Below, piece by piece: positions 6,883 to 58,182 of a stretch of 64,000 bases of DNA. Below the pieces are notes generated by a model. That model was not told the DNA's origin, did no database searches, and saw only the letters and a list, made by a program, of their open reading frames with translations. The stretch is taken from assembly GCA_965226645.1 (NCBI GenBank), contig CBDDDL010000002.1, forward strand, positions 667,147 through 731,146, read 5' to 3'. Source of the stretch: Candidatus Poriferisodalis sp. Lineage in GTDB: Bacteria > Actinomycetota > Acidimicrobiia > Acidimicrobiales > Poriferisodalaceae. Made by a program: the position numbers and the translations under genes. Within the stretch, counting starts at the first letter, position 1; each line of letters starts with the position of its first letter.

Positions 6883-6970
6883 TCATCTGTGGGACGCCGG
6901 ATCGCCGGCCTTGCCCGACAGAGCCAACAAGACGAGTGCCGCGAGGCCTGCGCACGCGGACGCAAACAGA
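6883..6970 (-). pseudogene. Orphan remnant of the nhaA 3' end (about the last 30 codons, ...FASACAGLAALVLLALSGKAGDPASHR*)
   Basis: About 75% nt identity over roughly 90 bp to the 3' end of intact nhaA at 9860-9960 (NhaA C-terminus ...GAGVAALVILALSGKAGDHPDEPP...). It has no N-terminal body. It lies between the giant gene start and the CWB-repeat gene. Confidence 0.45.
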
Positions 6971-7197
6971 ATGCCGAATCTGTTGGAGACAGTCGCCTCG
7001 CTCACGGCGGGCGGCGCCGATGCCGCGTTCTGCCTCGGCGTAGTGTCCGAAAGCAACGACGGGACACGCTCAGCGAGCGACGGGGAACCGGCAAGCGAGA
7101 TCGCCGTGGCTGTCCTCATCGACTTCAGCAGCACCGACGACGCCACCACCACGACCGCTACTGCTGCGCCCAGTCGCTATCCGATGGTGAGGTCGGA

Positions 7198-7626
7198 TTG
7201 TGCGTTAGTGCCGCGTCTTCGACAGGTTACCTGAGGGCTGTGTGGGAGTTCACCGCTACCTCGAACGTTGCGGAGCCTGACAATTGGACGATCAGCTGGA
7301 GTGCCGGTGGCAGCTCGTTTCTGACGGGTTCTCGCGATGGCGAGGTGCGCAGCATTAGCGGCAGGCTCCAGACGGCGATGTTCACAATTTTCGCCGGCCG
7401 GACATGGTCGGTCAGCATCGACGGAGGAACCGACTCCAACGGCGGCCCGGTCGGAGCAACCCAGACGTTCGACACCGACGGCACCTGGACCGGAACCGCA
7501 GGAGTCGGCCAATGCCGAACGCTGCCCCGGCGAGTTGCGCTGCTGACGCCGGCGGCCTGCGGCGGAACGGCTGGTGAGCCTCGTGGGGCGGATTCGGCGC
7601 CGCTACCAATCCTGCAACTTCTCTGA
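7198..7626 (+). CDS. Hypothetical small protein (speculative)
   Basis: The 3' part of track ORF 6667..7626 has coding-like GC3 (about 75%) and a beta-rich composition (..TWSVSIDGGTDSNGGPVGATQTFDTDGTWTGTAG..). A possible TTG start follows a GGTGAGG Shine-Dalgarno-like motif. The upstream part of the same ORF is R-rich junk antisense to the nhaA remnant. No homology recognised. Confidence 0.2.
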   Translation: MCVSAASSTGYLRAVWEFTATSNVAEPDNWTISWSAGGSSFLTGSRDGEVRSISGRLQTAMFTIFAGRTWSVSIDGGTDSNGGPVGATQTFDTDGTWTGTAGVGQCRTLPRRVALLTPAACGGTAGEPRGADSAPLPILQLL

Positions 7627-7817
7627 GCTCAGCTATGTCGTGGCCTTGCCTGCAGCTTGGACTGCACGCGAGGTAGTCCTGCAATTGGGAGCATCCGATC
7701 GCAGAGCCAATTGGGTAGTCCTCATCGTCATGTTCACCGTTTCGTAGAGACTCGGGGTGATTCAAACGCTCGGCAGCATGACCTGCGTTCGCGTTCGCAG
7801 CAAGTGCGCGCAGACGT

Positions 7818-9671
7818 CTACTCGTACACGTTGAAGGACCAGCTCACCGGTTCGACAGTGGCTGAGGATTGGTAAGTGGCTGTCCATCTTCCTGGAATGA
7901 GCGGGGTATCGGCGATGAGGAACACCGCATTGCTCCCTCGCAAGATGGAGCGTCCAGTTCCTCCGTAGACAGCGTCGGTCGTCGTATAGGTGTGCTCATC
8001 CACGCGGCACAGCGTGCCGTCGGCGGTTCGATGGTGTGAACCTCCAGGGCCGACAAGCTCGGCGACGGCCAGGGGGTCGGTATCAGTGGGAAGCATGATG
8101 ATCAGCGGCAGTCCCACAGCGCCAGCGCGGTATCCCTCGCACGACTCGAGCGGCGAGGGCAACTCGCCCCGGAAGCGCATGAGTGGAACCCAACTGCCGG
8201 GACCTGGAAACAGCACGATGTCGTCGTGGGTTGTGTGGCCAAGTCCGCGAATGACGTCCAATCCGGTGTTCAGTCCAACGCCGTCGACGCGCGCGAAAGC
8301 GACGCTCTCGAGCTGGGGGCGCAAGATACCAATGGCACGAAATGGGGCAGCCATCCATTGATCGATTGCCGCGGCATCGCTCGTCGCGACGCCCAAGTTG
8401 GATGATCGACCCGCGGCAGCGCCAGCGTCGCTGTAGTGGGGGCTTGCCGGATTCTCATAGTGCGCATTCGCGTACGTACCGATCCGAAGCGAGGGGTCGG
8501 TGAATCGAAGGTATTCGAGATGCTTCCTTATTCCCTCCGAACGATCGGGACGGTCCACAACTTCGGAGAGCCCCGATCCGGTTCGGTAAGCGTTGATACG
8601 GGCTAGCCACGCCGTCGGGAGCCGTTCAGGCACAACTTGATTGGCCTGCGCGTACAGCGCCGCCGAGGCAGCAGCGCCGATTCGGTCGGTGTCGGCAATC
8701 CGCACTACCGAAACTGGGTCGAGAAGTGCCGCTAGCTCCGTCTCAATACTGCCGGTCAATGTGGCGACGCTGCCGACCAACACCACATCAGTCGGGGCGA
8801 GACGGGTAACCGCATCGCTGCTGGAGGCTCCGAGCGTGTCTGTGTTGGAGAACAGCACGCTGCCGCCCAGCGCCGCGGCCAGCGGAGCAGCGATGCCCAC
8901 ATCCGCTGGCGACCAGCCGTTGGCGATCACCACTGGGCTGCCGGCGGGTGCGGCCGCCAACAACGCTGCCTTGGCAGCACTGTCAATCCGGTCGGCGCCC
9001 GCGAGCCGCTCGACAGGAACTCTGTCGAGGAGTTCGGCGAGCTGTGCCTCGATGTCCGTTGACAGAGCGGCGGTTCCGCCCACCAGGATGATCTTCGACG
9101 GCGCCAGCTGAGCCAACGCTGTGACCGTGGATTCACCGAGCTCGGGTTGAGACGAGAACAGCACGCTGCCGCTCAGCCCCGCGGCCAGTGGCGCTGCAGC
9201 GCCCACGTCAGCGGGCGACCAGCCGTTAGCGACCACCACCGCCCGACCCGGGGGAGCGGCTGGCCAGTAGAACGCCGCTGCTCTTGCCGCAGTATCGATC
9301 CGGTCGGCGCCGCTGAGGCGATCCACGCGCACACTCGGCAAGAGTTCGAACAGCTCGTCATCAATCGCAGCGGTCAGCGCCGCAGTGCCGCCCATAAGGA
9401 TGATCTTGGACGGCAAAAGCTGCTTCAGCGCATCCGCTGCCTCCGTGCCGAGTGCGTCCGCCGACGCATACAGCACGCGTCCGCCCAGTCGATTCGCCAA
9501 CGGCGCCGCAGCGCCCACATCCGCGGACGACCAGCCGTTTGCAATCACCACTACGCCGCCGCCCGACGTGTCGGTTTGCGCCGCCCCCAACGGCTGCACG
9601 GCCAGCGTCACGCCTAGCAACACCGCGAGACACACGAGGCCGAACAGCCGACGGAACCTTGTCACGGTCAT
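7818..9671 (-). CDS. Secreted protein with three tandem cell-wall-binding (CWB2-like) repeats and a ~260-aa C-terminal globular domain of unknown function
   Basis: Signal peptide MTVTRFRRLFGLVCLAVLLGVTLAVQPLGAAQT. Three ~100-aa repeats each with ..IANGWS.ADVGAAAPLA..LGG.VL...L.GGTAALS.....L..L..V.R..GADRID[TS]AA.. Coding GC3. Confidence 0.75.
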   Translation of the reverse strand: MTVTRFRRLFGLVCLAVLLGVTLAVQPLGAAQTDTSGGGVVVIANGWSSADVGAAAPLANRLGGRVLYASADALGTEAADALKQLLPSKIILMGGTAALTAAIDDELFELLPSVRVDRLSGADRIDTAARAAAFYWPAAPPGRAVVVANGWSPADVGAAAPLAAGLSGSVLFSSQPELGESTVTALAQLAPSKIILVGGTAALSTDIEAQLAELLDRVPVERLAGADRIDSAAKAALLAAAPAGSPVVIANGWSPADVGIAAPLAAALGGSVLFSNTDTLGASSSDAVTRLAPTDVVLVGSVATLTGSIETELAALLDPVSVVRIADTDRIGAAASAALYAQANQVVPERLPTAWLARINAYRTGSGLSEVVDRPDRSEGIRKHLEYLRFTDPSLRIGTYANAHYENPASPHYSDAGAAAGRSSNLGVATSDAAAIDQWMAAPFRAIGILRPQLESVAFARVDGVGLNTGLDVIRGLGHTTHDDIVLFPGPGSWVPLMRFRGELPSPLESCEGYRAGAVGLPLIIMLPTDTDPLAVAELVGPGGSHHRTADGTLCRVDEHTYTTTDAVYGGTGRSILRGSNAVFLIADTPLIPGRWTATYQSSATVEPVSWSFNVYE

Positions 9672-9793
9672 GAGAAGCTAGCTGCCGCTGCGCGAACGGC
9701 GAGCAGAGAGCGCACCGAACCGAGGTCTCGGTCATGGCCGACACCACTGTCGCATTCTCGAGGGCCAGCCAGGGGGGATTCCGGGCAGCGAGG

Positions 9794-11185
9794 CTAGCTA
9801 TCGGCGGCTGCAGACTCCGGCGGCGCGCTGCGGTCGCTGATCATGCCGGTAGGCGGCTCGTCGGGATGATCGCCTGCTTTGCCCGACAGAGCCAGTATCA
9901 CGAGCGCTGCTACGCCCGCGCCGGCGGAGGCGACCAAAATGCCGATCTTGGCGAGGTTGGTGATGCCGCCGTCGTCAAACGCCAAGCCCGTGATGAAGAT
10001 CGACACGGTGAACCCGATGCCTGCGGCGAAGCCCATGCCGATGAACTGCGGCCAGTTCATTCCCTCGGGCAGGTTGAATCCGAAGCGGGTCGCTACCCAG
10101 GTGAACAGCGTGATCCCCACCGGTTTGCCAATGACTAGACCCGCCACCACGCCCCAGGTCACCGGCGAGCCTGCGGCATCGGAGATCGCGTCGCCCGACA
10201 GCGGCACGCCAGCGTTCGCGAGGGCGAACAGCGGCACGATGAGAAATGCCGTGAACGGGTGGAACATCGTCTCCAGCCGTTCAGTCATCGGCACGGATTC
10301 CTGCACCAGGAACGACGCTTGGTGGACTTGCTCGATGCTGGGACGTTCCGGCAGATGGTCCACCACGTCCTGAGCCTGCCCCCGGCCGAGCAGCGGCCTC
10401 GCAGGCGTCAGCAGGCCCAGCGCGACACCAGCGATGGTGGCATGGACACCCGATTCGAGCGTGGCGTACCAGGCAACCAAACCGATCACCCAGTAGATCT
10501 CGAGGGCCCAAACCCGCATCACGGTGAGCAGCCTGATGACCACGAGGAGCGCGACGGCGAGCAGCAGCCACTTGAGATTCAGGTCGCTCGTGTAGAAGAT
10601 GGCGATCACGGCAATGGCGCCGATGTCGTCGACGATCGCCAATGTCAGCAAGAACAGCTTCAGCATCGGCGGAATCCGCGAGCCCAGCAGCGCCACTACG
10701 CCCACGGCGAACGCGATGTCGGTGGCCATCGGGATGCCCCAACCTGACGCGGCATCGCCGGACGGATTGAGCATGAAGTACAGCAGCGCCGGCGCGACCA
10801 TCCCGCCGATTGCTGCAATCGCCGGCAGCGTGGCCGCGCGCACGCTCGCCAGATAACCCGTCACCAGCTCGCGCTTGATCTCGAGGCCGACCACGAAGAA
10901 GAACAACGCCATGAGCGCGTCGTTCACGAACTCCTCGAGTGTGAGCGGATGCAGGTGAAAACCGCCGACCGAGATGTCGATGTGCGTGTGCCAGAAGTCG
11001 ACGTAGGCGTCGCTCCAGGGCGAATTTGCCCAGATGAGCGCTGCGCTGGTCGCCAGCAGCAACAGCACGCTGCCAGCCACCTCGCGGTGGACGAACTTCA
11101 AGATCGGCCGCGCCAAAAAGCGAGCAAGCCGGCTGCTCCCGCCTGCGAAAGTCTCCCGCTGGTACAGGTACTCCGGTCCGGCCAT
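9794..11185 (-). CDS. nhaA: Na+/H+ antiporter NhaA
   Basis: 463 aa, 12 TM. Conserved NhaA segments (..FFFVVGLEIKRE.., ..AFAVGVVALLG.., ..VDDIGAIAVIAIFYT..). Confidence 0.9.
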   Translation of the reverse strand: MAGPEYLYQRETFAGGSSRLARFLARPILKFVHREVAGSVLLLLATSAALIWANSPWSDAYVDFWHTHIDISVGGFHLHPLTLEEFVNDALMALFFFVVGLEIKRELVTGYLASVRAATLPAIAAIGGMVAPALLYFMLNPSGDAASGWGIPMATDIAFAVGVVALLGSRIPPMLKLFLLTLAIVDDIGAIAVIAIFYTSDLNLKWLLLAVALLVVIRLLTVMRVWALEIYWVIGLVAWYATLESGVHATIAGVALGLLTPARPLLGRGQAQDVVDHLPERPSIEQVHQASFLVQESVPMTERLETMFHPFTAFLIVPLFALANAGVPLSGDAISDAAGSPVTWGVVAGLVIGKPVGITLFTWVATRFGFNLPEGMNWPQFIGMGFAAGIGFTVSIFITGLAFDDGGITNLAKIGILVASAGAGVAALVILALSGKAGDHPDEPPTGMISDRSAPPESAAADS

Positions 11186-11262
11186 ACGGGCGCAAAGGAT
11201 ACGGCCACCGTCGCTGGTGCCTTGCCGCCGATCAGCCTCCGGGGTGCCTCGTCAACCGATGT

Positions 11263-11631
11263 TCAGCCGACAGTAAGACGCTCCACGGCGTCCTGTATCC
11301 CGGAAGCCATTTCGAAGAGCGGCTCGACACCGGTGTCGACCAGCGTGGCGCTGATTTCACGGTCCGTGACGACCAGCGACATTGCGCCCCCAGCGCCCTG
11401 ACAGCGCCGCCGAGCGTCGAGCAGCACGCCGAGGACCACCGGTGCCAACAAGTCGACATCGGTCAGGTCCACGATGAGCCTCGGCGGCGAACCTGCGGTG
11501 GCCAGCGCCGACCGCAGCGCACTGTCCAGCGACGCAATGGCTCCCAGATCGAGTTCGCCACGCGGGGTCACAACAACGGCACCCGAACCGTCTGCTGCGG
11601 TGACTGTGCGCTCGGAGATGCCGGAGATCAA
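11263..11631 (-). CDS. STAS-domain anti-sigma factor antagonist
   Basis: 122 aa. ..VTPRGELDLGAIASLDSAL...PPRLIVDLTDVDLLAPVVLGVLLDARRR.. is the typical SpoIIAA/RsbV fold pattern. Confidence 0.75.
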   Translation of the reverse strand: MISGISERTVTAADGSGAVVVTPRGELDLGAIASLDSALRSALATAGSPPRLIVDLTDVDLLAPVVLGVLLDARRRCQGAGGAMSLVVTDREISATLVDTGVEPLFEMASGIQDAVERLTVG

Positions 11632-11688
11632 CCCAGCCCCCGATGCCGTCGGTCCGGGGGCGGCTGGGTGATGGGCTCTCGGTCCGGC

Positions 11689-12813
11689 TCACGCAAAGCG
11701 AGGCATCACCTTGTCGCTGATGAGTTCGAGCGACGAGTTGATCTGGTCGGCGGAGTGGATGCCCTGGGGCACCAGGAAGAACGCCTCCTCGATGCCGAGC
11801 AGCGTCTGCGCCTCTTCGATCTGGCGGCTGATGGTGTCGGGGCTGCCGACGAGCTGCAGCGGCATGCCTTGGCCGAACTGGATGGCCCACTGATTCCAGA
11901 ACCACTCCATGTCGGCGAACTGGCGCCAGGCCTCCTCGTCGGTGGGCGCGCACACGGCCACCCCGCCCCAGCCGCACTCGTGCCCACGGGGCTTGTCGAC
12001 ACCGTGGCGAGCGGCCTCCTCGCGGTACGCCTTCCAGAGCGCCTCGCAGAAATCCATCTTGTCGCTCAGCACGATCGGCGTGCCGCCATAACGCGCCCAG
12101 AACACGGCCGAGCTCATCGACATCGTGAACCCGCCGTACAGCGGCGGGTGCGGTGACTGCAGCGGGCGTGGCGCGATGCCGACTTCGTGGATGGTCATGT
12201 CCGCATCGACGCCAGCGCCGTAGTCGGAATACACGGTGTGGGTGTGCGGGTTCAGGTTGTCGTTGGGGAAGCGCCAGAACTCGCCCTCATAGGAGAACGT
12301 TTCGCTGCGAAGCGCTGTCAGCACCACATCGACGAACTCTTCGAAGAACCGGCGGTTGTACGCGTCGTCGTGGGTGTCGCGGTTCCACTTGCCGACTGCG
12401 GCGAGGTCGGGGCGGATCTTGAACTGATCCACCCAGCGGTGCTGGTAGCCGCGCACCACGCCGAAGCACAGCCGCCCACCGGTCATGTGGTCGAGGGTTG
12501 CCACCTGCTCTGCAACCCGCAGCGGGTTGTGCGTGGTCGACACGTAGCCGCAGGCGATCGGGCGCAGCCGGGTGGTGTGCTGGGCAATCCAGCTGGCCAT
12601 CAGATTCAGATCGTTGGAGATCTCGAATCCCTCGATCTGCAGGTGGTGCTCTGGGTGGCCCAAGCCGTACCAGCCGGCCTCGTCGGCGAAGCGCGCGATC
12701 TCGGCAATCTCGCCGAGCATGCGCTGGTAGTAGTCGTTGTTGAGTCCTGCGAGGCCGCCTTCTAACTCGTGGCGGCGGCCGATCGTGCAGTACATGAACA
12801 AGCTGAACTTCAC
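11689..12813 (-). CDS. LLM-class (luciferase-like) flavin-dependent oxidoreductase
   Basis: Track ORF 11689..12882. The conserved start is probably the GTG giving VKFSLFMYCT.., so the first 23 track residues are likely non-coding. TIM-barrel LLM motifs throughout. Confidence 0.8.
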   Translation of the reverse strand: MKFSLFMYCTIGRRHELEGGLAGLNNDYYQRMLGEIAEIARFADEAGWYGLGHPEHHLQIEGFEISNDLNLMASWIAQHTTRLRPIACGYVSTTHNPLRVAEQVATLDHMTGGRLCFGVVRGYQHRWVDQFKIRPDLAAVGKWNRDTHDDAYNRRFFEEFVDVVLTALRSETFSYEGEFWRFPNDNLNPHTHTVYSDYGAGVDADMTIHEVGIAPRPLQSPHPPLYGGFTMSMSSAVFWARYGGTPIVLSDKMDFCEALWKAYREEAARHGVDKPRGHECGWGGVAVCAPTDEEAWRQFADMEWFWNQWAIQFGQGMPLQLVGSPDTISRQIEEAQTLLGIEEAFFLVPQGIHSADQINSSLELISDKVMPRFA

Positions 12814-12981
12814 CCCGAACCCCCGTCGGCTCGACCCGCAGCCGCCCCGCGCGACCACTTCGCGGAGTGTAGGTGAGTGCACTACGGCACGTTCCGGCGG
12901 CTGTCGTCTGCGGGTGTCAAGACACAGGTGCGCGTTCAGCCACTACATGAACGCACGTTCAGGACTAGGTTTTCCTACGGC

Positions 12982-13701
12982 ATGGCCAGCACCGATGCAG
13001 CCTCCGGCAGTTCAGGCGCAGTCGCCGGCAGTTCCGCCGAATCGGGCCCCATGGACAGCACCGTCGCCACCGAAGCCGAAGAGAACGACATCAACGGCAA
13101 CGGCCGTCGGGTCCGCAAAGGCGAGCGCAGCCGGATGCGCATTCTTGACGCTGCCGCGCGTCTGCTCTCGTGCCGCGGCTACGCCGCCACCACGCTGACC
13201 GACATCGCCGGCGCCGCCGAGATGCAGGCCGGCAGCCTCTACTACCACTTCGACTCGAAAGACGCGATCGTCGAAGAGGTGCTGCGGGTCGGCATCGACC
13301 ACGCCCGCAGCGCCATCGACGCGGCGCTCGAGGCTCTTGGTCCTGATGCCTCGGGCTCGGATCGGCTGGCCGAGACCATCGTGGCGTACGTGAACTGCAT
13401 CGTGGCCGCGAGCAGCTTCACCGTCGCCAACATTCGCTGCTACAACGAGTCGCCGCCGCACACCCGCGAGAACCTCACGGTGCCGCTGCGTGAATTCGCG
13501 AACCTCTGGGTGGGGCTGATTTCCGAAGGCCAGGCCGACGGCTCGTTGCGCGCAGACACCAACGCCAAGGTCCTCGCCAGGCTGATGATCTCGGGCCTCA
13601 ACTCTCTCGCGAGCTGGTACCGCCCCGGCGGCGAACTCCGCCTCGACGACCTCGCCCGCCAATTCGCCGCCATGGTCCTCACGGGTTTGCAGCCCGCCTG
13701 A
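12982..13701 (+). CDS. TetR/AcrR-family transcriptional regulator
   Basis: HTH ..RILDAAARLLSCRGYAATTLTDIAGAAEMQAGSLYYHFDSKDAIV.. Start taken at MASTDAAS; the track ORF begins upstream at 12877. Divergent from the LLM gene. Confidence 0.85.
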   Translation: MASTDAASGSSGAVAGSSAESGPMDSTVATEAEENDINGNGRRVRKGERSRMRILDAAARLLSCRGYAATTLTDIAGAAEMQAGSLYYHFDSKDAIVEEVLRVGIDHARSAIDAALEALGPDASGSDRLAETIVAYVNCIVAASSFTVANIRCYNESPPHTRENLTVPLREFANLWVGLISEGQADGSLRADTNAKVLARLMISGLNSLASWYRPGGELRLDDLARQFAAMVLTGLQPA

Positions 13702-13737
13702 ACTTCGAATAGTCGTTCTCAGCAGTAGCGTCCGCTG

Positions 13738-14856: not shown

Positions 14857-14879
14857 GCGGCCACGCCAACAACTGTCAC

Positions 14880-14923
14880 AAACCAACACACATCACTCAA
14901 ACTCCATGCGAGTGTGTTGGTTT
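14880..14923. other. Perfect 12-bp-stem inverted repeat (aaaccaacacac ... gtgtgttggttt) with a third direct copy at 14941-14953; possible terminator or operator
   Basis: Seen directly in the sequence 24 nt after the MFS stop, in a lower-GC intergenic stretch. No U-tract follows. Confidence 0.3.
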
Positions 14924-15121
14924 ACGAACGACACAACGCGTAAACCAACACAGATGAGGTAGCGGCGACTCACACCGCTTCCTCCCGAGAGAACCGAACG
15001 GGCTGAGGATTCCACTACGTTCCGGCAGACACCTGATCCGTGGGTTTGGCATTGCGCTTCGGCTCATGCACCGTGGACTCCTATGCGCCTGAGGAAGTGC
15101 CCCATCGACTCATATATCGAC

Positions 15122-15150
15122 TTGTCTCTATACTGAGTACGCTCTATAAT
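15122..15150 (+). promoter_or_regulatory. Sigma70/SigA-like promoter (TTGTCT - 17 nt - TATAAT) 6 nt upstream of the GTG of the HigB-like gene, giving a leaderless or near-leaderless transcript
   Basis: cgacTTGTCTctatactgagtacgctcTATAATctgattGTG. Local AT-rich island in an otherwise GC-rich window. Confidence 0.5.
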
Positions 15151-15156
15151 CTGATT

Positions 15157-15534
15157 GTGAAGTGGGAGGTGAGCGGCACAGACGAATTTGCCGAATGGTA
15201 CGACGGCCTTGCCGAAGCGCATCCAGACGGGCTTGTGGCGGCTGTCGAAATGCTCCGGGAGCACGGCCCTCGCTTGGGCCGGCCCCGTGCTGACCGGATT
15301 GAGGGTTCCAAGCATCACAACATGAAAGAGCTCCGGCCGCCCGGTGCCGCGAAGAACTTGCGCGTACTTTTCATGTTCGGCCCGCACCGCGAAGCCATCT
15401 TGCTGGTCGGCGGCGACAAGGGCGGCCAATGGAACAGCTGGTACAAGACAGCGATTCCCGAAGCCGAGCGTCTCTACGAGCGATACCTGGGCGAGATCGG
15501 CGCCGCGAACCCCCGCCACACCGCGCACGAATGA
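15157..15534 (+). CDS. higB: HigB-like toxin (Gp49/DUF891, RelE/ParE superfamily)
   Basis: ..ELRPPGAAKNLRVLFMFGPHREAILLVGGDKGGQWNSWYKTAIPEAERLYERYL.. matches the Gp49-like HigB pattern (R[IV]L[FY]FF..[KR].[IV]LL.GF.K....Y...I..A..). Toxin-first gene order with a downstream HTH. Start taken at the GTG after the promoter; the track ORF starts at 15040. Confidence 0.6.
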   Translation: MKWEVSGTDEFAEWYDGLAEAHPDGLVAAVEMLREHGPRLGRPRADRIEGSKHHNMKELRPPGAAKNLRVLFMFGPHREAILLVGGDKGGQWNSWYKTAIPEAERLYERYLGEIGAANPRHTAHE

Positions 15535-15554
15535 ACGAAGGAGGATCACACAAC

Positions 15555-15893
15555 ATGGGACATCGAAAGTTCAGCGACATCGTCGGCGAGATCAGCCCTG
15601 AACGCCGCGCCCGCATCGACGCAATCAAGCAAGCAGCCCGGGCCGACGCTGTGGCATTCAGCCTCGCTGAGGTCCGCAAGCGTCGCGACATCACACAGGT
15701 CAACCTCGCCCAGCAGATGCAGCGTTCCCAAGCGTCTATCTCGGCGATGGAGACAGCCGGCGACAACCTGCTCTCCACTTGGCTGAGCGCCATGGAAGCC
15801 ATGGGAGGCCGTCTCGAACTCGTGGCCGTGTTCGACGACGAGCGAATCGCCATTCCCACCGACGGATCCGAGCTCACAGCAACATCAATGTGA
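15555..15893 (+). CDS. higA: HigA-like XRE-family HTH antitoxin
   Basis: AAGGAGGA Shine-Dalgarno 9 nt upstream of ATG. MGHRKFSDIVGEISPERRARIDAIKQ..LAEVRKRRDITQVNLAQQMQRSQASISAMETAG.. 112 aa. Confidence 0.7.
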   Translation: MGHRKFSDIVGEISPERRARIDAIKQAARADAVAFSLAEVRKRRDITQVNLAQQMQRSQASISAMETAGDNLLSTWLSAMEAMGGRLELVAVFDDERIAIPTDGSELTATSM

Positions 15894-16215
15894 AGCGAGA
15901 AGCGTTCTCCATTCATGCGCTGAGAACGACCGGTGCGTCTCACGCTGCCACGTGGCGTCCTGAGAGTGGCCGAACAACGCAACCTGCAAATCAGCGCACA
16001 TGACCCAATCTGGCTCTACGCAACCGTATCGACAGCGGGTACCTGACGTCGTCGATGACATCGAACGCAGGTTGTTGCACCGGACACGCTTGAGGGGCGA
16101 AGCAATGGCCGCGATCTGGCAGGAACCAATGCTCGAAGCCGGCGGCGCCGCGGTTGCCCTGGGCGTCAAGCCCTCGAATCGGGAGAAGGTGCGCCAATAC
16201 GGATGGTGCGAGCGC

Positions 16216-18288
16216 CTAGAACCGGCCGCTCGTGCTCAGGCGCCGCCGGTGCTCGAGGAAGTCGACCAGCACGTAGTTGCCCAGATCGTGCGGGCTCGTG
16301 AAGAACGCCCGGCCGCCGTTCATCTCGGTCATCTTCTCCACGAACGCCCGCAGGTAGCTGTTCGGGTCGAGCATGAACACGTTGATGCGGATGTCCTCGC
16401 GGGTGGCGCGGGCCACTTCCAACAGCGTCGCCTCGATGGTCTCGCGCACCGGCGGGTAGGCAAAGAACGGACGCCCGTCGCGCCCGAGGTGGGCGGTCGG
16501 CTCGCCGTCGGTGATCATGATGATCTGCTTCGAGCCGCTCTGGCGGGCCAGCAGGCGCCGAGCGATCATGAAGCCGTGCTGCATGTTGGTGCCGTAGGCG
16601 AAATCCCACGACACCTCCGGCAGCTGCGACGCCTTCAGCTCGTTGGCTGACTCGGCAAAGCCCACGATGCCGAGGTAGTCACGCGGGAACTGCGTTGAGA
16701 TCAACGAGTGCAGCGCCATCGTGACCTTCTTCGCGGGAAGAAAGTTGTCACGCATCGGCATCGACAGCGACAGGTCCAGCATCAGCACCGTCGAGGCCCG
16801 AGAAAGCAGCTCAGTCCGCTCGATCTCGAAGTCGTCGGGCGTCAGCCGCACCGGCGTGCCGGTCCCCTGGCGGGCAATGGCGTTGCGCACGGTGCGCTCG
16901 ATATTGAGATTGAAGGTGTCGCCGAATTCGTAGGGCTTGGTCTCGTAAGCCCGTTCGTGGCCGATGCCGGTCTTGTGCACCTGGTGACTGCCGACCTTGT
17001 CGTCCATGAGACGGTCGAACAGGTCGCCCAGAGCGTTCTGGCCGATGCGTCGCAGCGCCCGCGGCGTGAGCTCGAGCCTGCCTTCGGTGTGCTGGGCAAG
17101 CCCTGATTCCTCAAGCATCCGAGCCATCTCGCTGAGCTGCTCCAACGCCTCAGCGGACTCGTTGCCGAGCAGCTCACGCACCCGCTCCGGGTCCACCTCG
17201 GCCAGCGCGGAGGGGCTGACGGCACCCTGCAGCATCTCTGAGAGCGCATCGAGGTCGCCGAGTTGGCCCAGCACATCGGCGGCCTGGGACATCGACAACG
17301 GATCGTCGCCTCCGAACTGGTAGCCCCGCTCCCAACCCATGCCGGGGAATGCCTGCTGGAGGTTCTGGGCGAGTTGCTGGGCCTGCCACTGCAGATCCAT
17401 GTCGTCCATGAATTGCGCGGCCAGGTCGGCGAGCTGCTGGCGTTGGGCCGGCGTCATCGAGTTGAGCATCGAGGCCATGGCCGCCATGCGCTTGGCCATG
17501 ATCTCGAGCAGCTCGTCGAGCGTCTGGGGGTTCTCGGGGAAGAAATCGCCGTAGCGGTCCATGAAGCCCTCGAAGTCGGGCTCTTCGCCCCGGGCGCGCT
17601 GTTCGAGCATCTGGTTGAGCTCGGCCATCATGTCCTTGGTGCGGGCCAAGTCCTCGGGGCTCATGTTGCCCATCGCGCCCGTCATCTGGTCGAAGTAGCT
17701 CTGGGCGACCTCTTGTCGCAGCCGCTCCACCAGCTCGGCGAACTGTTCGCGGGCTTCGGGAGATTCGAAGTCGTAGCTCTGCAGGCCCCGCATCTTCCCG
17801 GCGAGGTCGGGCGGCAGCATGTCGAGTTGCAAGTTGCGCTCGGCGGCGCTGGACTGGGCGATCTCGCTGCGTCGCTCGTCGCCGCTGTCGGTGGCATCGT
17901 GCGCGAACTGTTCGAGTGCCTCGCGCTCGGTGTCGGTGATCTCGCCGAGCTCACGGGCGATGTCGTCGTAGACGCCGCCGAGATCGAATTGATCGAGCAT
18001 TTCCGAGCGGCGCTCGCGCAGCCGCTCGAGCATCTCGCGAAGCCCTTCGAGCCGGTTGCCGTCGGCGTCGGTGAAGCCCTGTTGCATCAGGCGCCGCAGC
18101 GCAGCATTCAGGTCGCCGTGATACAGCAGATCGTCGGTCAGTTCGGCGAAGAGGCTGTCCGCGTCGAAGTCGAAGCCGGTCTGGGTGCCGTCCCAAGCCG
18201 AATAGCGGAAGCGGGTGCCCTCGCGGCGGGCCCGACGCCAGCGAATCTTCATCGAACGCCCACTGTCCTTGCTCCGTCGACCGCGCAA
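16216..18288 (-). CDS. VWA-domain protein with a long acidic/coiled-coil N-terminal region (partner of the MoxR-like ATPase)
   Basis: C-terminal vWA with MIDAS (..VLMLDLSLSMPM.. ..IIMITDGEPTAH..). An alternative start is M13 (MKIRW..) at 18252. Confidence 0.8.
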   Translation of the reverse strand: MRGRRSKDSGRSMKIRWRRARREGTRFRYSAWDGTQTGFDFDADSLFAELTDDLLYHGDLNAALRRLMQQGFTDADGNRLEGLREMLERLRERRSEMLDQFDLGGVYDDIARELGEITDTEREALEQFAHDATDSGDERRSEIAQSSAAERNLQLDMLPPDLAGKMRGLQSYDFESPEAREQFAELVERLRQEVAQSYFDQMTGAMGNMSPEDLARTKDMMAELNQMLEQRARGEEPDFEGFMDRYGDFFPENPQTLDELLEIMAKRMAAMASMLNSMTPAQRQQLADLAAQFMDDMDLQWQAQQLAQNLQQAFPGMGWERGYQFGGDDPLSMSQAADVLGQLGDLDALSEMLQGAVSPSALAEVDPERVRELLGNESAEALEQLSEMARMLEESGLAQHTEGRLELTPRALRRIGQNALGDLFDRLMDDKVGSHQVHKTGIGHERAYETKPYEFGDTFNLNIERTVRNAIARQGTGTPVRLTPDDFEIERTELLSRASTVLMLDLSLSMPMRDNFLPAKKVTMALHSLISTQFPRDYLGIVGFAESANELKASQLPEVSWDFAYGTNMQHGFMIARRLLARQSGSKQIIMITDGEPTAHLGRDGRPFFAYPPVRETIEATLLEVARATREDIRINVFMLDPNSYLRAFVEKMTEMNGGRAFFTSPHDLGNYVLVDFLEHRRRLSTSGRF

Positions 18289-18364
18289 ACCGCCAATCGC
18301 CTCGGGAACCGAACGCCCACCGCCATGGCCTTCACTCTGTCACGGTCGCAGTCGGGACAGCGAC

Positions 18365-19795: not shown

Positions 19796-19937
19796 GGCGG
19801 GCAACCTAGCCCCCGGCACTCGTGGCGACAGGCGCCGGATTCGGCATCGGCGACCGCTACCGTCGCGACGAGACCAGGTGCGCCGGGTGCAGCGCTCGCA
19901 CAGCGCGCACGTGCGGTCACCGAGACGGGGGGACAGG

Positions 19938-21197: not shown

Positions 21198-21387
21198 CGC
21201 CCTGACCAGCAACCCACGACGAATTGCGCAGAGCGGAAGGCGCGCAAGTACGGTTCGAGGCCGCGCGAACCGCTCTCTGCGGTCTCGCACCGAAACCACG
21301 TCGCATCCAGTTCGCTGACCGGGTCAGCCCGGCCGGCTGTGCCGCCACTGCACACTGTCCCCCGAACGTCACCCACAGGAGGAGCAC

Positions 21388-22218: not shown

Positions 22219-22219
22219 G

Positions 22220-25042: not shown

Positions 25043-25054
25043 TGCGCGCTTTGG

Positions 25055-40048: not shown

Positions 40049-40086
40049 GCCGACGCCCGTGAGCCGACGCCCGTGAGTTTGGGCCG

Positions 40087-42156: not shown

Positions 42157-42169
42157 GGCTCGGGCGGGC

Positions 42170-43345
42170 GTGCGGGCGCTGATTTTCGAGCGCAAGGAAT
42201 TGCGATTCGCGGCGGCGATGGCAGCGGGCAAGCTGAAGCCTGGCTCGGGTGCAGGCGTGGGCCCACTGCGTTTGACCGAGATGGATCCGCCGGAGCTGCC
42301 GGGCGGCGACTGGCAGTACGTGCGCACGGCGCTGTCGGGCATCTGCGGCTCGGATCTTGCGACGGTGGACGGGAAGGTGTCGCGCTATTTCGAGTCGCTG
42401 GTGTCGTTCCCGTTCGTGCCAGGCCATGAGGTGGTGGGTCACATCGACGACGGCTCCCGGGTGGTGCTGGAACCGGTGCTGGGGCCCGAAGCGCACGGTG
42501 TTGCACCGCCGTGGCCCGACGCGGCGCCTGCCGACGGCGACGACTACGGCCACTTGATCGGCGGCGTGATCGAAGCCGGGTTGCAGACAGGTTCGTGTTC
42601 GTCGACTGGTGGCGGTTGGTCCGACACGTTCGCCGCACACCGGTCGCAACTGCATTCGCTGGGGGCGCTGGGTCCGGCGGAACTGTCAGACGAGGCGGCG
42701 GTGATGATCGAGCCGACCGCGGCGGGCATTCATGCTGCGTTGCGGTCGGGAGTGACCGAGGGCGGCACAGCGGCGGTGATTGGCGCCGGCACGATGGGAT
42801 TGGTTGCGGTTGCCGCGCTGCGTCAACTGACCGGCGTGGCGGCGATCGTGGTGGGCGCCCGCTACAGCCATCAGCGCCGGCTGGCCCGTGAGCTGGGGGC
42901 CGACTTGGCGGTGTCGCCCGACGAGTTGGGACGGGCCGTGCGCCGTGCCGCAGGCACGAGGGTGATCGGGCAGACGCTGGGCTCGGGAACGCACGTGACG
43001 ATCGATGCAGTCGCCTCGTCGTCGTCGCTGACTGATGCCATTGCAATCACCCGACCGCGGGGTCGGGTGGTGGTGCTGGGCATGCCTGCGAACGTGGAAC
43101 TGAACCTGTCGGCGTTGTGGCACCGCGAGACCGAGTTGGTGGGGGCCTACTGCTACGGCACCGAGCCAGCACTGGACGGGGGTCACACCTTCGAGGCCGC
43201 GATCAAGCTGGTGCGCGACTGCGACCTAGGCCGACTGGTCTCTGCGTTGTACCCGCTGGAGGAGTACCGGGCTGCGCTGGAGCACGCCGCGAGTGCTGGT
43301 GCGCGCGGCTCGACCAAGATTGCGTTTGATTTGCGCGAGGACTGA
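42170..43345 (+). CDS. Zinc-binding medium-chain dehydrogenase/reductase (threonine/sorbitol dehydrogenase-like)
   Basis: ..LSGICGSDLATVDG.. ..PFVPGHEVVGHI.. Rossmann ..AVIGAGTMGLVAVA.. Confidence 0.8.
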   Translation: MRALIFERKELRFAAAMAAGKLKPGSGAGVGPLRLTEMDPPELPGGDWQYVRTALSGICGSDLATVDGKVSRYFESLVSFPFVPGHEVVGHIDDGSRVVLEPVLGPEAHGVAPPWPDAAPADGDDYGHLIGGVIEAGLQTGSCSSTGGGWSDTFAAHRSQLHSLGALGPAELSDEAAVMIEPTAAGIHAALRSGVTEGGTAAVIGAGTMGLVAVAALRQLTGVAAIVVGARYSHQRRLARELGADLAVSPDELGRAVRRAAGTRVIGQTLGSGTHVTIDAVASSSSLTDAIAITRPRGRVVVLGMPANVELNLSALWHRETELVGAYCYGTEPALDGGHTFEAAIKLVRDCDLGRLVSALYPLEEYRAALEHAASAGARGSTKIAFDLRED

Positions 43346-43703
43346 AGTCGTTTCGTGCGAGCGGCGCCCGAGTCGTATTCGCTTGCAATACAATTACCGC
43401 CGTGGAGCGCCCATTCGACGTGGACCTCCTCGACGACCATGACCCGTTCGAAATCACCGATCAGCTGCCACATTTGCACAAGCACGGAATGCTCGGCGTG
43501 TCATACATCGTTGAAGTCTGACAGAACAGACCGCTCTTCTACCCGGCGCGACCTCCCGCACACTGGATCATGGTTGCGGAGGTCAACGGTGACGTGCTGG
43601 CGGTCCCGCTCGCACCATCAAAGTCCGGTGACTCAACTAAGTGTCGGCCGATTGGCTGCTACGAGGCACCCCGGTACCTGACAGCTCAATACATGGAGGA
43701 CCG

Positions 43704-43940
43704 ATGAACACTGAGAGCATGTCGCCTGCTGAGGAATACGAGTTCTATAGCCGGCCGGAAAACCTGCGACCCCAGGGGCCACCACGACGCCGCGTGACCA
43801 CCCTGTCCGACCCGATCGCGGTGCGCTTCTCGCCGCAGGTGCTCGAACAGGTGAAAGCAGCGGCGGCGGCAGATGACCGCTCGGTGTCTTCGTGGGTTCG
43901 CCGCGCAGTCGATAACGCCTTGCAAGAATCATCCGCCTAG
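43704..43940 (+). CDS. Ribbon-helix-helix (CopG/Arc-type) DNA-binding protein
   Basis: GGAGGA Shine-Dalgarno. ..RRRVTTLSDPIAVRFSPQVLEQVKAAAAADDRSVSSWVRRAVDNAL.. is an RHH pattern. It lies in a lower-GC 0.6-kb insert. A 45-codon upstream ORF ends in ATGA overlap with its start. Confidence 0.65.
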   Translation: MNTESMSPAEEYEFYSRPENLRPQGPPRRRVTTLSDPIAVRFSPQVLEQVKAAAAADDRSVSSWVRRAVDNALQESSA

Positions 43941-43970
43941 ACGACACGGTCCCCAACCAACGCCGGCTCC

Positions 43971-44012
43971 CGCGGCTCAACCATGATTGCCTTCGACCTG
44001 CGCGAGAGCTGA
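43971..44012 (+). other. Orphan copy of the last 13 codons plus stop of the ADH gene (..RGSTMIAFDLRES*)
   Basis: 34 of 42 nt identical to 43304..43345 (..RGSTKIAFDLRED*). The differences are mostly synonymous third-position changes. The orphan copy has the host-like higher GC3. Confidence 0.6.
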
Positions 44013-44226
44013 TCTCCTCAGTCCGCCCGGGGGCGTCTCGCCTCGGAACGGACAGCCCGTGACGGATCCGCCTGGTCAGCTTCGATCTGGGCCACGAGCT
44101 CGGGATGCCGCAGCAGAGCGGCTTCATGTGCCGACGTCACGGCGGCGGGAGTTCGGTCGGCTTCTTCGTTCACATAGCAAGGACTGCCAGATCGAAGGAA
44201 GAGGAGACTGACCGGTCGTCAACGCA

Positions 44227-54970: not shown

Positions 54971-55099
54971 CTGCACCTACGAGCGGTGGGCAGACAGAGG
55001 TCACGATGACAGACCGCATGTGTGAGACAAAAGCCGACAGCCGCTGGTTGCTTGAGTTCGGCAAGACCCTCGCAAGCGCGGATTCGTTCCAATCGGAGG

Positions 55100-56400
55100 T
55101 ATAGGAGGGGCGGCGAACTCCATCGGTGGATGCTCCTATGTTTGTCAACTCCCGGTCTGTGCGAGGTGTCGCTGGTAGCGTTCGGCGAGGTCGCGGTTGT
55201 GGATGATGCCTCTTTCGAGTTCGGATATCCGGTTGGGTGCGGCTCCGAGGGCTCGGGCTGTCTGGTGGATGGTGAGCCCTCGTTGGGTGCGGTGGCGGCG
55301 CAGGTCCGCTCCGTGGGCGACGTCGGGCGGGTCGATGATCAGCTTGTAGACCTCGCGTGCGATGTGGCGTTTGAGGCAGCGGAGTATCTCGCGTCGGGTC
55401 TTGCCCTCGGCGGTGAGGCGGGCGGCGTAGGCGATGCTGCGCTCGTCGACGCGCAGGCGGACCATCGCGATGCGCCACAGTGCGTTGTTGGCCTGGCGGT
55501 TGCCGCCGCGGTTGAGCCGGTGGCGCACCGTTCGGCCTGAGGACGCCTCGATGGGGCTGGTGCCGCACAGGGCGGCGAAGGACGCCTCGCTGCGCAGCCG
55601 CTCGGGGTTGTCGCCGGCGGCGACGAGCAGCGCGGCCGCGGTCTCCGCGCCGACGCCGCAAGCGCCCAGCAGCGCCGGGTTGGCTCGTTCGCACAGGCGG
55701 CGCAGCTCGGCGTCGAGGTGCTTGATCTCCGCGGTGAGAGCCTGGTGGCGGCGGGCCAGGGAGCGCAGCGCCCGCTTGGCCGCAGAGCGGACGAGATCAC
55801 CGTGTGTGCCGGGCCGCATCCGGGCGCAGGCGGCGACGGTGCGGGCGGTGTTCAGTGCCCGCAGGCGGTCTTTGACGGGCTCGGGGGCGGTCACGACGAC
55901 AGCGTCGATCTGGTTGGCGGCGACGGTGCGGGCCTTGACCGCGGAGCGGCGCGCCACACGCAGGGTCCTGATCGCCTCGACGCATCCGTCGGCGCTCTTG
56001 GGCACCACTGCGGCACTGCCGTTGAGCGCGGCCCGCGCCGCTGGCTCCGCGTCGACGGTGTCGGTCTTGCCGCGGCGGCGGCGCATCTGGCGGTTCGGGC
56101 GGTTCACATCGACGACGTCGACGCCGGCAGCCGTGAGGTGCCGGGCGAGGCCCGCGCCGTAGGAGCCGGTTCCCTCCACGCCGACGCGCTCGACGCTGCG
56201 GTGGCCGCCGAGCCATCCCAGCAGCGCCGTGTAGCCGGCGGTGTCCGCGTCGAACGCGGCGCTGCCCAAGACCCGTCCGGCGCCGTCGAGGACGGCGGCG
56301 ACATGGGTGTGCTTGTGGGTGTCGACCCCGCCGAATACGGCGGGGCGGTCCTGTGTCATGATGGTGATGCCTCCTTGTGGTCATCTCACTGTCGGGGGCG
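55100..56400. mobile_element. IS110-family insertion sequence (bounds approximate)
   Basis: Contains the IS110-type transposase gene 55145..56359. IS110 elements lack terminal inverted repeats, so the ends are not delimited here. Confidence 0.5.
55145..56359 (-). CDS. IS110-family (DEDD) transposase
   Basis: N-terminal ..VFGGVDTHKHTHVAAVLDGAGRVLG.. C-terminal ..GVGAETAAALLVAAGDNPERLRSEASFAALCGTSPIEASSGRTVRHRLNRGGNRQANNALWRIAMVRL.. Confidence 0.85.
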   Translation of the reverse strand: MTQDRPAVFGGVDTHKHTHVAAVLDGAGRVLGSAAFDADTAGYTALLGWLGGHRSVERVGVEGTGSYGAGLARHLTAAGVDVVDVNRPNRQMRRRRGKTDTVDAEPAARAALNGSAAVVPKSADGCVEAIRTLRVARRSAVKARTVAANQIDAVVVTAPEPVKDRLRALNTARTVAACARMRPGTHGDLVRSAAKRALRSLARRHQALTAEIKHLDAELRRLCERANPALLGACGVGAETAAALLVAAGDNPERLRSEASFAALCGTSPIEASSGRTVRHRLNRGGNRQANNALWRIAMVRLRVDERSIAYAARLTAEGKTRREILRCLKRHIAREVYKLIIDPPDVAHGADLRRHRTQRGLTIHQTARALGAAPNRISELERGIIHNRDLAERYQRHLAQTGS

Positions 56401-56639
56401 CCACCGGCCGCGACGGCGGACAGAACACTCACGGTGTGGCTTACAAGGCTCCTATCGGGTCACATCCGTCGGGCCGGTCGGTGCGCGCCCCGCCGACCAG
56501 ACAAAGCCGACAGATCCACCGCAGGGCACCACGAGGGGCCGGTTGCAACTCGGGTCAGACCCTCTCCTGCCGACAGGGCCCAACCATTATGAGTGTTGCA
56601 AGTGAACGGTCATGATGACCGTTGCGAACACATGCAGCC

Positions 56640-57631
56640 GACCGATGGAGGTGTCAGTATGGCAGCGAGGCTGAGTTTGGATGAGCGGGTGTTATCGAGT
56701 CGTCGCTCGGGACGGGCCGCAGCGTCGCGGACGTAGCGCAGCGGCTGGGCCGTGATCCGTCGACGGTGCATCGCGAGCTGGCCCGCTGCGCCGGGCGGGC
56801 GGGCTATGACGCCCGCTCGGCGCACGCGTCGGCATGCGCGAGGACGCGACGAGAGCGAACGCCCAAGCTGGCGGCCGATCGGGTGCTGGCCGCCGCGGTC
56901 GATGAGCGCTTGAAGCTGCGTGGTCCCCGCACGCGACCGCGGCGGACCTGCGCGAGGCGGGCATGAGCGTGTGCGCGGAGACGATCTATCGGGCGTGCTA
57001 CGCGAACGACGCGCGCAGCGGCCTGCCCGCCGGCACCTGGGCGAAGCTGCCGCGGCGCGCCCGGCGCCGTCGGCCGCGCAGCGTCGCGCAGGCCCAAAAG
57101 CCCAGCCCGCTGGGGGAATACCGGCCGATAGCCGACCGGCCCGACGACGTCGAGGACCGTATAGAGCCCGGCCACTGGGACCGCGACCTCATCGTCGGCA
57201 AAGCGAACCTCACCGCCGCGGTCACCCTCGCAGAGCGCACCAGCCGCTACACGGTCACCGCAGCGCTGCCCGACGGCTACGGCGCGCCCCAGGTCGCCGC
57301 CGCGGCCGCCGCGGCGCTGGGCCGCCAGCCCGCAGCGCTCGTGCGCAGCCTCACCTGGGACCAAGGCCGCGAGATGGCCCGCTGGGCCGACGTCGAGGCC
57401 GCGCTCGGCATCGAGGTGTTCTTCTGCGAGCCGCGCTCGCCGTGGCAGCGACCCACCAACGAGCAGACCAACGGACTGCTGCGCCGATGGCTCCCCAAAG
57501 GCACCAGCCTCGACATCGGACAACTGCGGCTCTCGGTCATCGAGGACAACCTCAACCACATGCCCCGCCGACTCCACCACTGGACATCAGCACACGACAT
57601 CTACACTCAACTCACTTGCAACCACCGGTAG
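56640..57631 (+). mobile_element. Degenerate IS30-family element (transposase carries at least one frameshift in its N-terminal HTH region)
   Basis: ORF 56963..57631 has the IS30 DDE core (..GHWDRDLIVGK.. ..LTWDQGREMA.. ..FFCEPRSPWQRPTNEQTNGLLRRWLPKGTSL..). The upstream HTH part (MAARLSLDERVL.. / ..VADVAQRLGRDPSTVHRELAR..) is spread over three frames. Confidence 0.65.
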
Positions 57632-58044
57632 AGCTTGCCGGCCTTCGATCCATCATCTCGGTAGAGCTGAACGTTCCCGTCGTCGAACGAGAACAGCGTC
57701 GTGTCGCCTGCGCTGAGCCGTTCCAAGCCGATGCGAGCACTTCGCTTGTCGAAGCGGTTGTGCTCAATCTCGATGCGGTAGCGAAAGTTGTCGTCACCTA
57801 CAACAGCGTCAATCTCGACGACTTGGACTCGATCGTGCTGCCACATCGTCAGTGCGCTCGAGGGGAAGCAGGACGCTTCGGTGACCTTGGCCTCGCCCAG
57901 GAGCAGCTGCCGCACGGCGTAGACGACATCGAGTAAGGCGGTCTTGCCAGACCCGTTTGGGCCGAGCAACAGATTGACTTCGCCGAGTCGTAGCTCGAAG
58001 TTGACCAAGCACTTGTAGTTGTGCACGTAAACGCGCTTCAGCAC
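57607..58044 (-). pseudogene. ABC-like (AAA_21-type) ATPase, N-terminal fragment (Walker A)
   Basis: VLKRVYVHNYKCLVNFELRLGEVNLLLGPNGSGKTALLDVVYAV.. The track ORF 57607..58173 adds 43 spurious N-terminal codons that run into the displaced aquaporin repeat. The fragment ends at the junction with the IS30-like remnant. Confidence 0.6.
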
Positions 58045-58136
58045 GGAGTCAGAGTATCGCCCGGTGTCTTGGTGGAGGCTGCTGCGGTGCTGGGTCGTGG
58101 TTCTCGCCGTTGGCGCGGCTCGCACCGCATACCCGG

Positions 58137-58182
58137 GGCGCTGTGCGCCATCGGCGTGGCGCGGGTGACACACCCGGCGCGC
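58137..58182. repeat. 46-bp direct repeat, copy 2 (displaced aquaporin 3' end)
   Basis: Identical to 53904..53949. It lies 4.2 kb downstream, just before convergent hemB. Confidence 0.85.

Follow-up and report, generated by a model that had tools for sequence, protein, structure and literature searches.

The closest described systems to the loci analyzed here are integrative elements that target gene ends and systems that displace them. Integration into gene 3′ ends and the cis-mobilizable elements (CIMEs) have been defined by Guedon et al. (2017, PMC5704250). The displacement of C-termini or effectors by homology-facilitated illegitimate recombination has been described for Rhs, contact-dependent inhibition (CDI), and type VI secretion system (T6SS) effector-immunity arrays (Kirchberger et al. 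2017, PMC5361080, where Jackson et al. 2009 is cited for displacement). Here, a stretch of 64,000 nt from Candidatus Poriferisodalis sp. (contig CBDDDL010000002.1, positions 667,147 to 731,146; "the window") was analyzed, in which pieces of three genes, namely nhaA, an alcohol dehydrogenase gene (ADH), and an aquaporin gene, recur downstream of inserted DNA. An earlier reading of the sequence only had taken these repeats for one recurrent signature of an active mechanism. All three repeats are real homologies; chance similarity was rejected on the basis of the E-values, of reading frames and stop codons that are preserved, and of matches to native gene ends of relatives. Nevertheless, they are scars of separate insertions of different ages in gaps between core genes. 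This is a familiar kind of scar at ordinary hotspots, and not evidence of a new active integration system.

The close homologs of the window are named "Candidatus Poriferisodalis", a sponge symbiont of the Acidimicrobiia. The GC content of the window is 65%, and the third-position GC marks the coding frames. The hotspot comparison comprised the window and the homologous regions of nine genomes at graded distances, i.e., L002, L019, L016, L018, L108, L111, L020, L021, and L025, of which L002 is a 99%-identical strain. The nhaA region was compared with L022, L023, and L024. A contig of a nearly identical strain from ENA (L105) is 99.7%, and not 100%, identical to the window.

By their geometry, the aquaporin and ADH sites resemble integrative elements and CIMEs. 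Direct repeats flank foreign DNA, one repeat forms the functional end of an intact gene, the sites are empty in relatives, and both inserts are free of integration and transfer genes and have kept attL/attR-like repeats. The repeat includes the functional gene end at the aquaporin site (49/50) and at the ADH site (40/54, and 48/54 to the ancestral end), but not at nhaA, where it is not a gene terminus. The sites differ from integrative elements in that no related full integrase element is present at them in the ten genomes, that the cargo, which measures only 0.6 kb in the smallest case, takes up the room between the repeats, and that repeats are missing from other insertions at these sites. 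With the Rhs, CDI, and T6SS arrays they would share that incoming DNA with common upstream sequence brings a new 3′ end plus cargo and leaves the old 3′ end orphaned downstream, that no recombinase takes part, and that homologous replacement leaving no orphan is the commoner case. In contrast to these arrays, the anchors in the window are housekeeping genes (ADH and aquaporin) instead of polymorphic toxins, the new and the old ends code for essentially the same peptide, and the displaced pieces are only 50–55 nt long. Integron gene cassettes are different, as no IntI-like protein was found in the window, the cargo ends have no shared imperfect inverted repeat, and insertion occurred at gene ends and not at attI.

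Displaced gene ends at the aquaporin and ADH sites

The gap between ADH and aquaporin, the gap between aquaporin and hemB, and the region downstream of nhaA are accessory-gene hotspots in the genus, which lie between core genes. Their cargo varies from genome to genome and includes McrBC, VapBC, HipBA, Phd/PIN, defence-type ATPases, an AHJR-like nuclease, and insertion sequence (IS) elements. The GC content of the core genes is 0.67–0.69, whereas that of the inserts is 0.59–0.61. Different cargo per genome in the same gaps and a GC content below that of core genes are also found at chromosomal accessory and defence hotspots, and there is no essential difference between these and the sites in the window; the displaced gene ends are an occasional by-product here and not a defining trait. 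The gap-free gene order thrS-ADH-aquaporin-hemB is present in L021 and L111. In L003 (1357–4197), the most distant relative with this neighbourhood, the aquaporin gene is inverted, with ADH on the plus strand and aquaporin and hemB on the minus strand. The convergent aquaporin-hemB layout is therefore specific to the Poriferisodalis group.

The features of the aquaporin-hemB site are the following:

53277–53951, plus strand: aquaporin (MIP family) core gene (Pfam)
53900–53949, plus strand: repeat copy A, inside the aquaporin gene, followed by TGA and then by GCCTGCCGCGC
53952–58133: insert between aquaporin and hemB, 1.65 kb without the IS block, GC 0.59–0.60
57607–58047 and 54311–54916, minus strand: decayed ATPase gene in two pieces (Pfam AAA_15/AAA_21)
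55112–57639: IS block inside the ATPase gene (Pfam), absent from L002
55145–56359, minus strand: IS110-family transposase (Pfam)
about 56660–57634, plus strand: IS30-family transposase with HTH_38 and rve domains (Pfam)
58134–58186, plus strand: displaced native aquaporin 3′ end (repeat copy B at 58134–58183), ending in a TAG stop of its own; the native spacer and hemB come next
58213–59193, minus strand: hemB (delta-aminolevulinate dehydratase), a core gene in convergent orientation that forms the boundary of the hotspot (Pfam ALAD, E = 2e-137)

The 46-bp identity that had been noticed from the sequence was reproduced exactly (53904–53949 versus 58138–58183, 46/46), and it extends to 49 of 50 nt (53900–53949 versus 58134–58183). 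The displaced copy lies 4.2 kb downstream of the gene. The stop codons differ, as the copy in the gene is followed by TGA and the displaced copy by TAG. The latter continues with CGGCTCGG, and after 27 nt more the hemB stop codon is reached. Six relatives (L016, L018, L021, L025, L108, and L111) have no insert between aquaporin and hemB, and their spacers are 11–128 nt long. The region 58134–59951 of the window forms one contiguous alignment block with 10624–12501 of L016, which contains the L016 aquaporin end, the spacer, and hemB. The downstream copy is thus collinear with a native aquaporin-hemB junction, and therefore, it is the displaced resident end. The 11–13 nt past the stop codon of the functional copy (GCCTGCCGCGC) belong to a spacer type that is native to L111, L025, and L018. 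Hence, the functional end together with a short stretch downstream looks like another allele of the locus. A recombination breakpoint was not detectable in the aquaporin gene, which is too conserved to reveal one, and a candidate for an illegitimate join (CATACC|CGGGG) is ambiguous.

The cargo of the insert is an ATPase gene, which matches AriA, mad3, PtuA, and HEC-01A type models of PADLOC. It is frameshifted and additionally split by the 2.5-kb IS block. Strain L002 (99% identical) carries this repeat and this insert, but lacks the whole IS block, which shows that the IS110 and IS30 transposases are later arrivals. The two IS elements abut, and one may have targeted the other. At the aquaporin site of L019, an ATPase with 75–77% identity is found together with extra genes and without a displaced copy. 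The best homolog of the ATPase has 81% identity and is encoded on a 2-kb contig, whereas all others have at most 54%. A multicopy mobile cassette was considered for the ATPase and rejected, as it has no close homologs beyond this one match. The near-identical contigs L002 and L105–L107 all carry the aquaporin insert, and the event is present only in the strain of the window and in such contigs with about 99% identity.

Two small repeats were observed at the same site. The ATPase pseudogene contains an exact 38-nt duplication (54860–54897 and 54933–54970, within 54860–54970) around a unique 35-nt filler, which occurs nowhere else in the window. In L002, the 38-nt stretch is single-copy and the filler is missing. 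In L025 (about 1676–1730) and L111 (about 10673–10730), two units of about 20 nt (GAG[G/C]CTGCCGCGCCACAGGC) follow the aquaporin stop codon about 13 nt apart. This near-repeat of the spacer could be a minor trace that a previous insertion or deletion left in this hotspot.

The features of the ADH site and its downstream region are the following:

42170–43345, plus strand: zinc-type ADH core gene (Pfam)
43292–43345, plus strand: atypical last 54 nt of ADH with AT-shifted synonymous codons
43346–43958, plus strand: ADH insert of 613 nt, GC 0.61
43402–43707, plus strand: unannotated open reading frame (ORF) with an in-frame TGA at 43519–43521 (translation)
43704–43940, plus strand: ribbon-helix-helix ORF of 78 aa with a 4-nt overlap with the ORF 43402–43707 (weak Pfam matches, E about 2e-3)
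43959–44012, plus strand: displaced ancestral ADH 3′ end with its own stop (NAGSRGSTMIAFDLRES followed by the stop), 48/54 to the native end of L111
44227–47880, plus strand: McrB and McrC restriction genes (Pfam AAA_5 and McrBC), GC about 0.60
48169–49668, minus strand: HNH-domain gene

For the displaced ADH end, 34 identities in 42 nt had been noted, and this count to the gene end is exact. The true extent of the copy is 54 nt, and the reading frame and the stop codon are kept. Comparison with relatives revealed which of the two ends is the older one. The displaced copy has 48/54 identities to the native ADH end of L111, where ADH is directly followed by aquaporin, versus only 40/54 to the own end of the window. 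It also matches the ADH end of L018 (BLAST E = 1e-11), and its peptide is nearly the same as the ends of L108 and L111, which finish with RES and the stop. In contrast, the present ADH end of the window has only 33–41 of 54 identities to the end of any relative, versus 86.5% for the whole thrS-ADH alignment with L016. It contains AT-rich synonymous codons (AGT GCT GGT and ATT GCG TTT GAT TTG) and is an outlier among all genomes. These results show that the displaced copy is ancestral and that the present ADH end was imported.

The ADH site is uninterrupted in L021 and L111. L016 contains the same displaced copy (4777–4830, 48/54 identical), and it shares the copy, the ribbon-helix-helix gene, and the flank with the window (84% over 434 nt). 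The displaced copy therefore goes back to one old event that predates the split of the two species. The two genomes differ from the last ADH codons up to the ribbon-helix-helix gene, and in L016 the ADH stop and the ribbon-helix-helix gene are instead separated by a gene for an AHJR-like nuclease. The shared repeat with different cargo shows that the cargo was later swapped without formation of a new repeat. More generally, the DNA directly 3′ of the ADH stop is different in every genome examined. This also applies to near-identical genomes: in L105 (1–346, corresponding to about 43279–43624 of the window) a gene for a 436-aa DDE transposase (DDE_Tnp_1_4) extends into the place of the toxin-like ORF, and thus, the hotspot is variable even between genomes with 99.7% identity.

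By its layout, the ORF pair of the ADH insert resembles a toxin-antitoxin pair, from which a toxin role might be supposed. A BrnT-like toxin identity of the ORF 43402–43707 had no Pfam support and was dropped, and the only label kept is that of a toxin-antitoxin-like layout. The cargo ORFs reach to within 56 nt and 18 nt of the two repeats. As the displaced copy lies about 0.6 kb past the gene and precedes McrBC, the idea that it forms the far boundary of an McrBC island is wrong. The location of McrBC after the displaced ADH end indicates that McrBC is an older layer of the hotspot than the toxin-antitoxin-like insert. Remnants of McrBC are present in L016, L019, and L020. Three G-rich repeats of about 42 nt (47983–48195, 71–86% identical to the reference copy) lie in the stretch from McrC to the 3′ end of the HNH-domain gene. 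Farther downstream, an 18-nt unit (ACACGGGATCTGACACCG), which codes for an Asp/Thr/Gly/Ser-rich repeat, occurs in tandem at least nine times (52905–53138). The copies are located at the 3′ end of a bacterial gene of the animal haem peroxidase family (51275–53200), which is found in some relatives only.

The nhaA repeat, other insertions, and recombinases

The features of the nhaA site are the following:

9794–11185, minus strand: nhaA Na+/H+ antiporter gene (Pfam PF06965, E = 3e-141)
9868–9945, minus strand: repeated part of nhaA, which encodes the last transmembrane helix and has its end 74 nt short of the stop codon
6978–9780, minus strand: window-specific DNA between nhaA and the fragment (synteny break versus L022–L024)
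7818–9671, minus strand: 617-aa protein with cell-wall-binding repeats (Pfam CW_binding_2)
7227–7628, minus strand: unannotated ORF in the window-specific DNA
6900–6977, minus strand: orphan nhaA fragment (GILFASACAGLAALVLLALSGKAGD), whose frame runs into unrelated codons and stops at 6883

The third repeat had been described as an old copy of the nhaA terminus of about 90 bp with roughly 75% identity. The homology is real (78 nt, 61/78 between 6900–6977 and 9868–9945), and the fragment has even more identities to nhaA of relatives (67/78 for L022 and 68/78 for L023, E about 1e-19). However, the repeated stretch is not the terminus. The nhaA gene of the window is orthologous to those of L022–L024 through the stop codon and about 15 nt past it (alignment). 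In all three relatives, a gene for an H+-pyrophosphatase follows directly after nhaA. The window replaces it with at least 9.8 kb of window-specific DNA. This DNA codes for the cell-wall-binding protein and for a protein of more than 2262 aa, and it also contains the fragment, after which native downstream DNA is absent. Consequently, the nhaA fragment is an internal piece, an eroded relic in a rearranged region. The ORF of more than 2262 aa (2–6787, minus strand) extends past the window edge. Arylsulfotransferase, cadherin-like, and Calx-beta domains were recognized in it, as were internal repeats of 90–650 nt, and it is window-specific relative to L022–L024.

A general signature is not supported. 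Flanking repeats of at least 11 nt were absent at six other insertions that were checked, i.e., HipBA in L016 and L111, VapBC in L108, the enoyl-CoA hydratase gene in L019, and both L019 inserts. Most insertions at these hotspots have no repeat. No second independent event with a repeat was found at these sites: the window and L016 share one ADH event, and L019 and L108 hold other cargo without repeats. A metagenome scan with the aquaporin protein yielded no strong displaced aquaporin copy at any of 63 testable, mostly distant loci. A self-BLAST of the window detected few other dispersed direct repeats, all of which are within genes or local, and apart from the shared ADH copy, 19 related loci yielded a single case, a partial tRNA duplication. 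This duplication is located in L006, a Microthrixaceae metagenome-assembled genome, where the 3′ 61 nt of tRNA-Val(CAC) are duplicated (45–105 and 2011–2071) with 90% identity at a distance of 1966 nt. The copies flank a single gene for a 558-aa secreted protein, without an integrase. This is the geometry of a partial tRNA 3′-end duplication that flanks a genomic island; the targets in the window are protein-coding genes, and the window contains no tRNA genes.

Recombinases were searched by Pfam scans of the sizeable ORFs of the window and of selected cargo ORFs of L016 and L019, and in precomputed Pfam annotations of the genes called at the loci of the relatives. Domains of tyrosine or serine recombinases were found neither in the scanned ORFs of the window nor in any hotspot cargo of the ten genomes. 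The only recombinases seen were transposases of the IS110, IS30, and IS630 types. The previous statement that the inserts encode no integrase thus holds for tyrosine and serine recombinases, but the aquaporin insert does contain the two transposases, both of which are secondary. An integrase-bearing element using the same att site was not present at these sites in the ten genomes, and the repeats had no matches in viral contigs. The cargo ends have no terminal inverted repeats, the secondary structure at the repeats is not unusual (z-scores of −0.2 to −1.0), and no motif common to all three repeats was recognized by eye.

Origin of the repeats

We tentatively prefer homology-anchored illegitimate capture, i.e., a displacement model, over att-type integration; we assign it a probability of about 45%, and the geometry agrees with both models equally well. 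At the aquaporin and ADH sites, the incoming DNA would have carried its own copy of the last 50–55 nt of the upstream core gene. The imported copy would now terminate the core gene, and the resident 3′ end would have been pushed downstream of the cargo. The donor might have been a related strain with the cargo already placed just after the same core gene, which would then have paired as homologous anchor. At the non-homologous far end, an illegitimate join would have been made some tens of nucleotides before the resident stop codon, and no recombinase would be needed. A join past the stop codon would leave no repeat, which is the commoner outcome here, and the cargo could later be exchanged by ordinary homologous recombination. 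In agreement with the model published for T6SS and Rhs loci (PMC5361080), the incoming DNA is the source of the new 3′ end, and the resident 3′ end persists as an orphan farther downstream. We lean to illegitimate capture because recombinases are absent everywhere examined, because the 613-nt ADH cargo has no room for a deleted integrase gene, because most hotspot insertions leave no repeat, and because the lineage shows cargo swapping by flanking homology as well as the recent 38-nt duplication with its filler. Both the duplication and the filler are absent from L002, which indicates that illegitimate events that create duplications occur in the lineage.

Several points weigh against illegitimate capture. 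Wherever its frequency has been measured, homology-facilitated illegitimate recombination is a rare process. Both clear joins are at most 50–55 nt from the stop codon, which a random illegitimate join predicts only weakly. An imported tract was not seen upstream of the aquaporin repeat, where the gene is too conserved to show one. Neither natural competence nor another route of DNA uptake is known for this uncultured lineage. The nhaA fragment requires extra deletions or a rearrangement under any model. Lastly, tyrosine-integrase elements classically leave direct repeats of 46–60 nt in which the gene 3′ end is contained (PMC5704250), and the repeat lengths observed here fit this footprint well. 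Together with the clean pattern of foreign functional and native displaced copies, they fit att-type integration slightly better.

Site-specific attB × attP integration into the 3′ ends of protein genes by tyrosine or serine recombinases is accordingly a possibility to be taken seriously, albeit a less probable one. The elements would have supplied mimics of the gene ends and would either have decayed to integrase-less remnants (CIMEs) or have been mini-cassettes mobilised by an integrase encoded elsewhere. The attL/attR-like footprint proposed by the sequence-only reading is indeed found at aquaporin and ADH, where foreign DNA of lower GC content lies between a functional and a displaced native end and relatives have empty sites, and where the gene end is part of repeats of 50 and 54 nt. 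A crossover at the upstream repeat edge would be expected to give just the pattern seen, with a functional copy that is foreign-like throughout and a displaced copy that is native-like throughout. In addition, toxin-antitoxin-like and defence cargo is of the kind that tends to survive the decay of islands, and a distant relative has the classical version around a one-gene insert (61 nt of the tRNA-Val 3′ end in L006). The footprint cannot be extended to nhaA, where the piece is internal and native DNA does not follow. Neither the three inserts nor the scanned ORFs of the window nor the hotspot cargo of ten genomes contain a tyrosine or serine recombinase, and viral contigs have no matches to the repeats. 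The internal deletion of an integrase gene is implausible in the ADH insert, whose ORFs nearly touch both repeats. Moreover, L019 and L108 have insertions at the same sites without repeats, and in L019 this applies even to homologous ATPase cargo at the aquaporin site.

If the integrases acted in trans, Acidimicrobiia sponge symbionts would possess a recombinase system that moves integrase-less mini-cassettes with single toxin-antitoxin or defence genes (0.6–1.7 kb) into the last 50–60 nt of housekeeping and tRNA genes, each with a gene-end mimic. It would resemble the cassette economy of integrons, but with neither attC sites nor an integron platform. Integrases acting in trans had been suggested before and may exist, although no positive sign of them was seen; we regard such a cassette system as improbable. 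The observation that three repeats occur in 64 kb had been taken as support for one active mechanism. This is not supported, as the events differ greatly in age: the one at ADH is older than the split of two species, the one at aquaporin was seen only in the strain of the window and near-identical contigs, and the nhaA fragment is eroded and atypical.

Unlikely as well is a local error of repair or replication (template switching, or end-joining with fill-in), by which a gene end would have been duplicated in place and foreign DNA caught at the same break, without a homologous anchor. The exact 38-nt duplication with its 35-nt filler, which arose recently inside the ATPase gene, and the 20-nt near-repeat just past the aquaporin stop in L025 and L111 speak in favor of it. 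However, a local error predicts two copies of the same allele, whereas the functional ADH end is far from the ancestral one (40/54), and the two aquaporin copies differ in stop codon and in spacer type, both of which look native. Transposition by one IS or transposon family with long target-site duplications, the other mechanism that had been proposed, was rejected and can be regarded as most improbable. It would account for a direct repeat around each insert and for the IS110- and IS30-family transposases within the aquaporin insert. Yet, the repeats have unequal lengths (50, 54, and 78 nt), two of the three pairs are diverged, and the insert ends have no terminal inverted repeats. L002 has the repeat and the insert without the IS block, so that the IS elements came later. 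The sequences after the aquaporin repeats, i.e., TGA with one native-like spacer versus TAG with another, are inexplicable by a target duplication.

The scars record the order of events at hotspots of an uncultured sponge symbiont. They reveal which gene end is the ancestral one, and they place McrBC before the toxin-antitoxin-like insert and the IS elements last. On the present evidence, they are occasional by-products of ordinary hotspot turnover. If many integrase-less cassettes bounded by gene-end mimics existed genome-wide, this would point to an undescribed way of moving toxin-antitoxin and defence genes.

Other variable gaps

Two further gaps in the window have variable contents in relatives. 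The 30-nt gap between two short-chain dehydrogenase genes (62190–62221) contains HipBA in L016 (14776–16414) and L111 (15021–16671) and the enoyl-CoA hydratase gene in L019 (17904–18788). In L018 (16919–17535), a PIN-domain pair is located after the second short-chain dehydrogenase gene. None of the insertions of this region in L016, L111, L019, and L018 has flanking repeats.

The gap 14857–16215 lies between an MFS transporter gene and a VWA-domain gene (16216–18288). It includes an ORF of the Gp49 family (DUF891, 15040–15534) and, overlapping with it, an ORF with a weak helix-turn-helix (HTH_31) match (15429–15893). The corresponding gap harbours RES-domain and RCC1 genes in L022 and an IS element in L023, and it is empty in L024. 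This variation of the cargo among relatives shows that the MFS-VWA gap is another hotspot.

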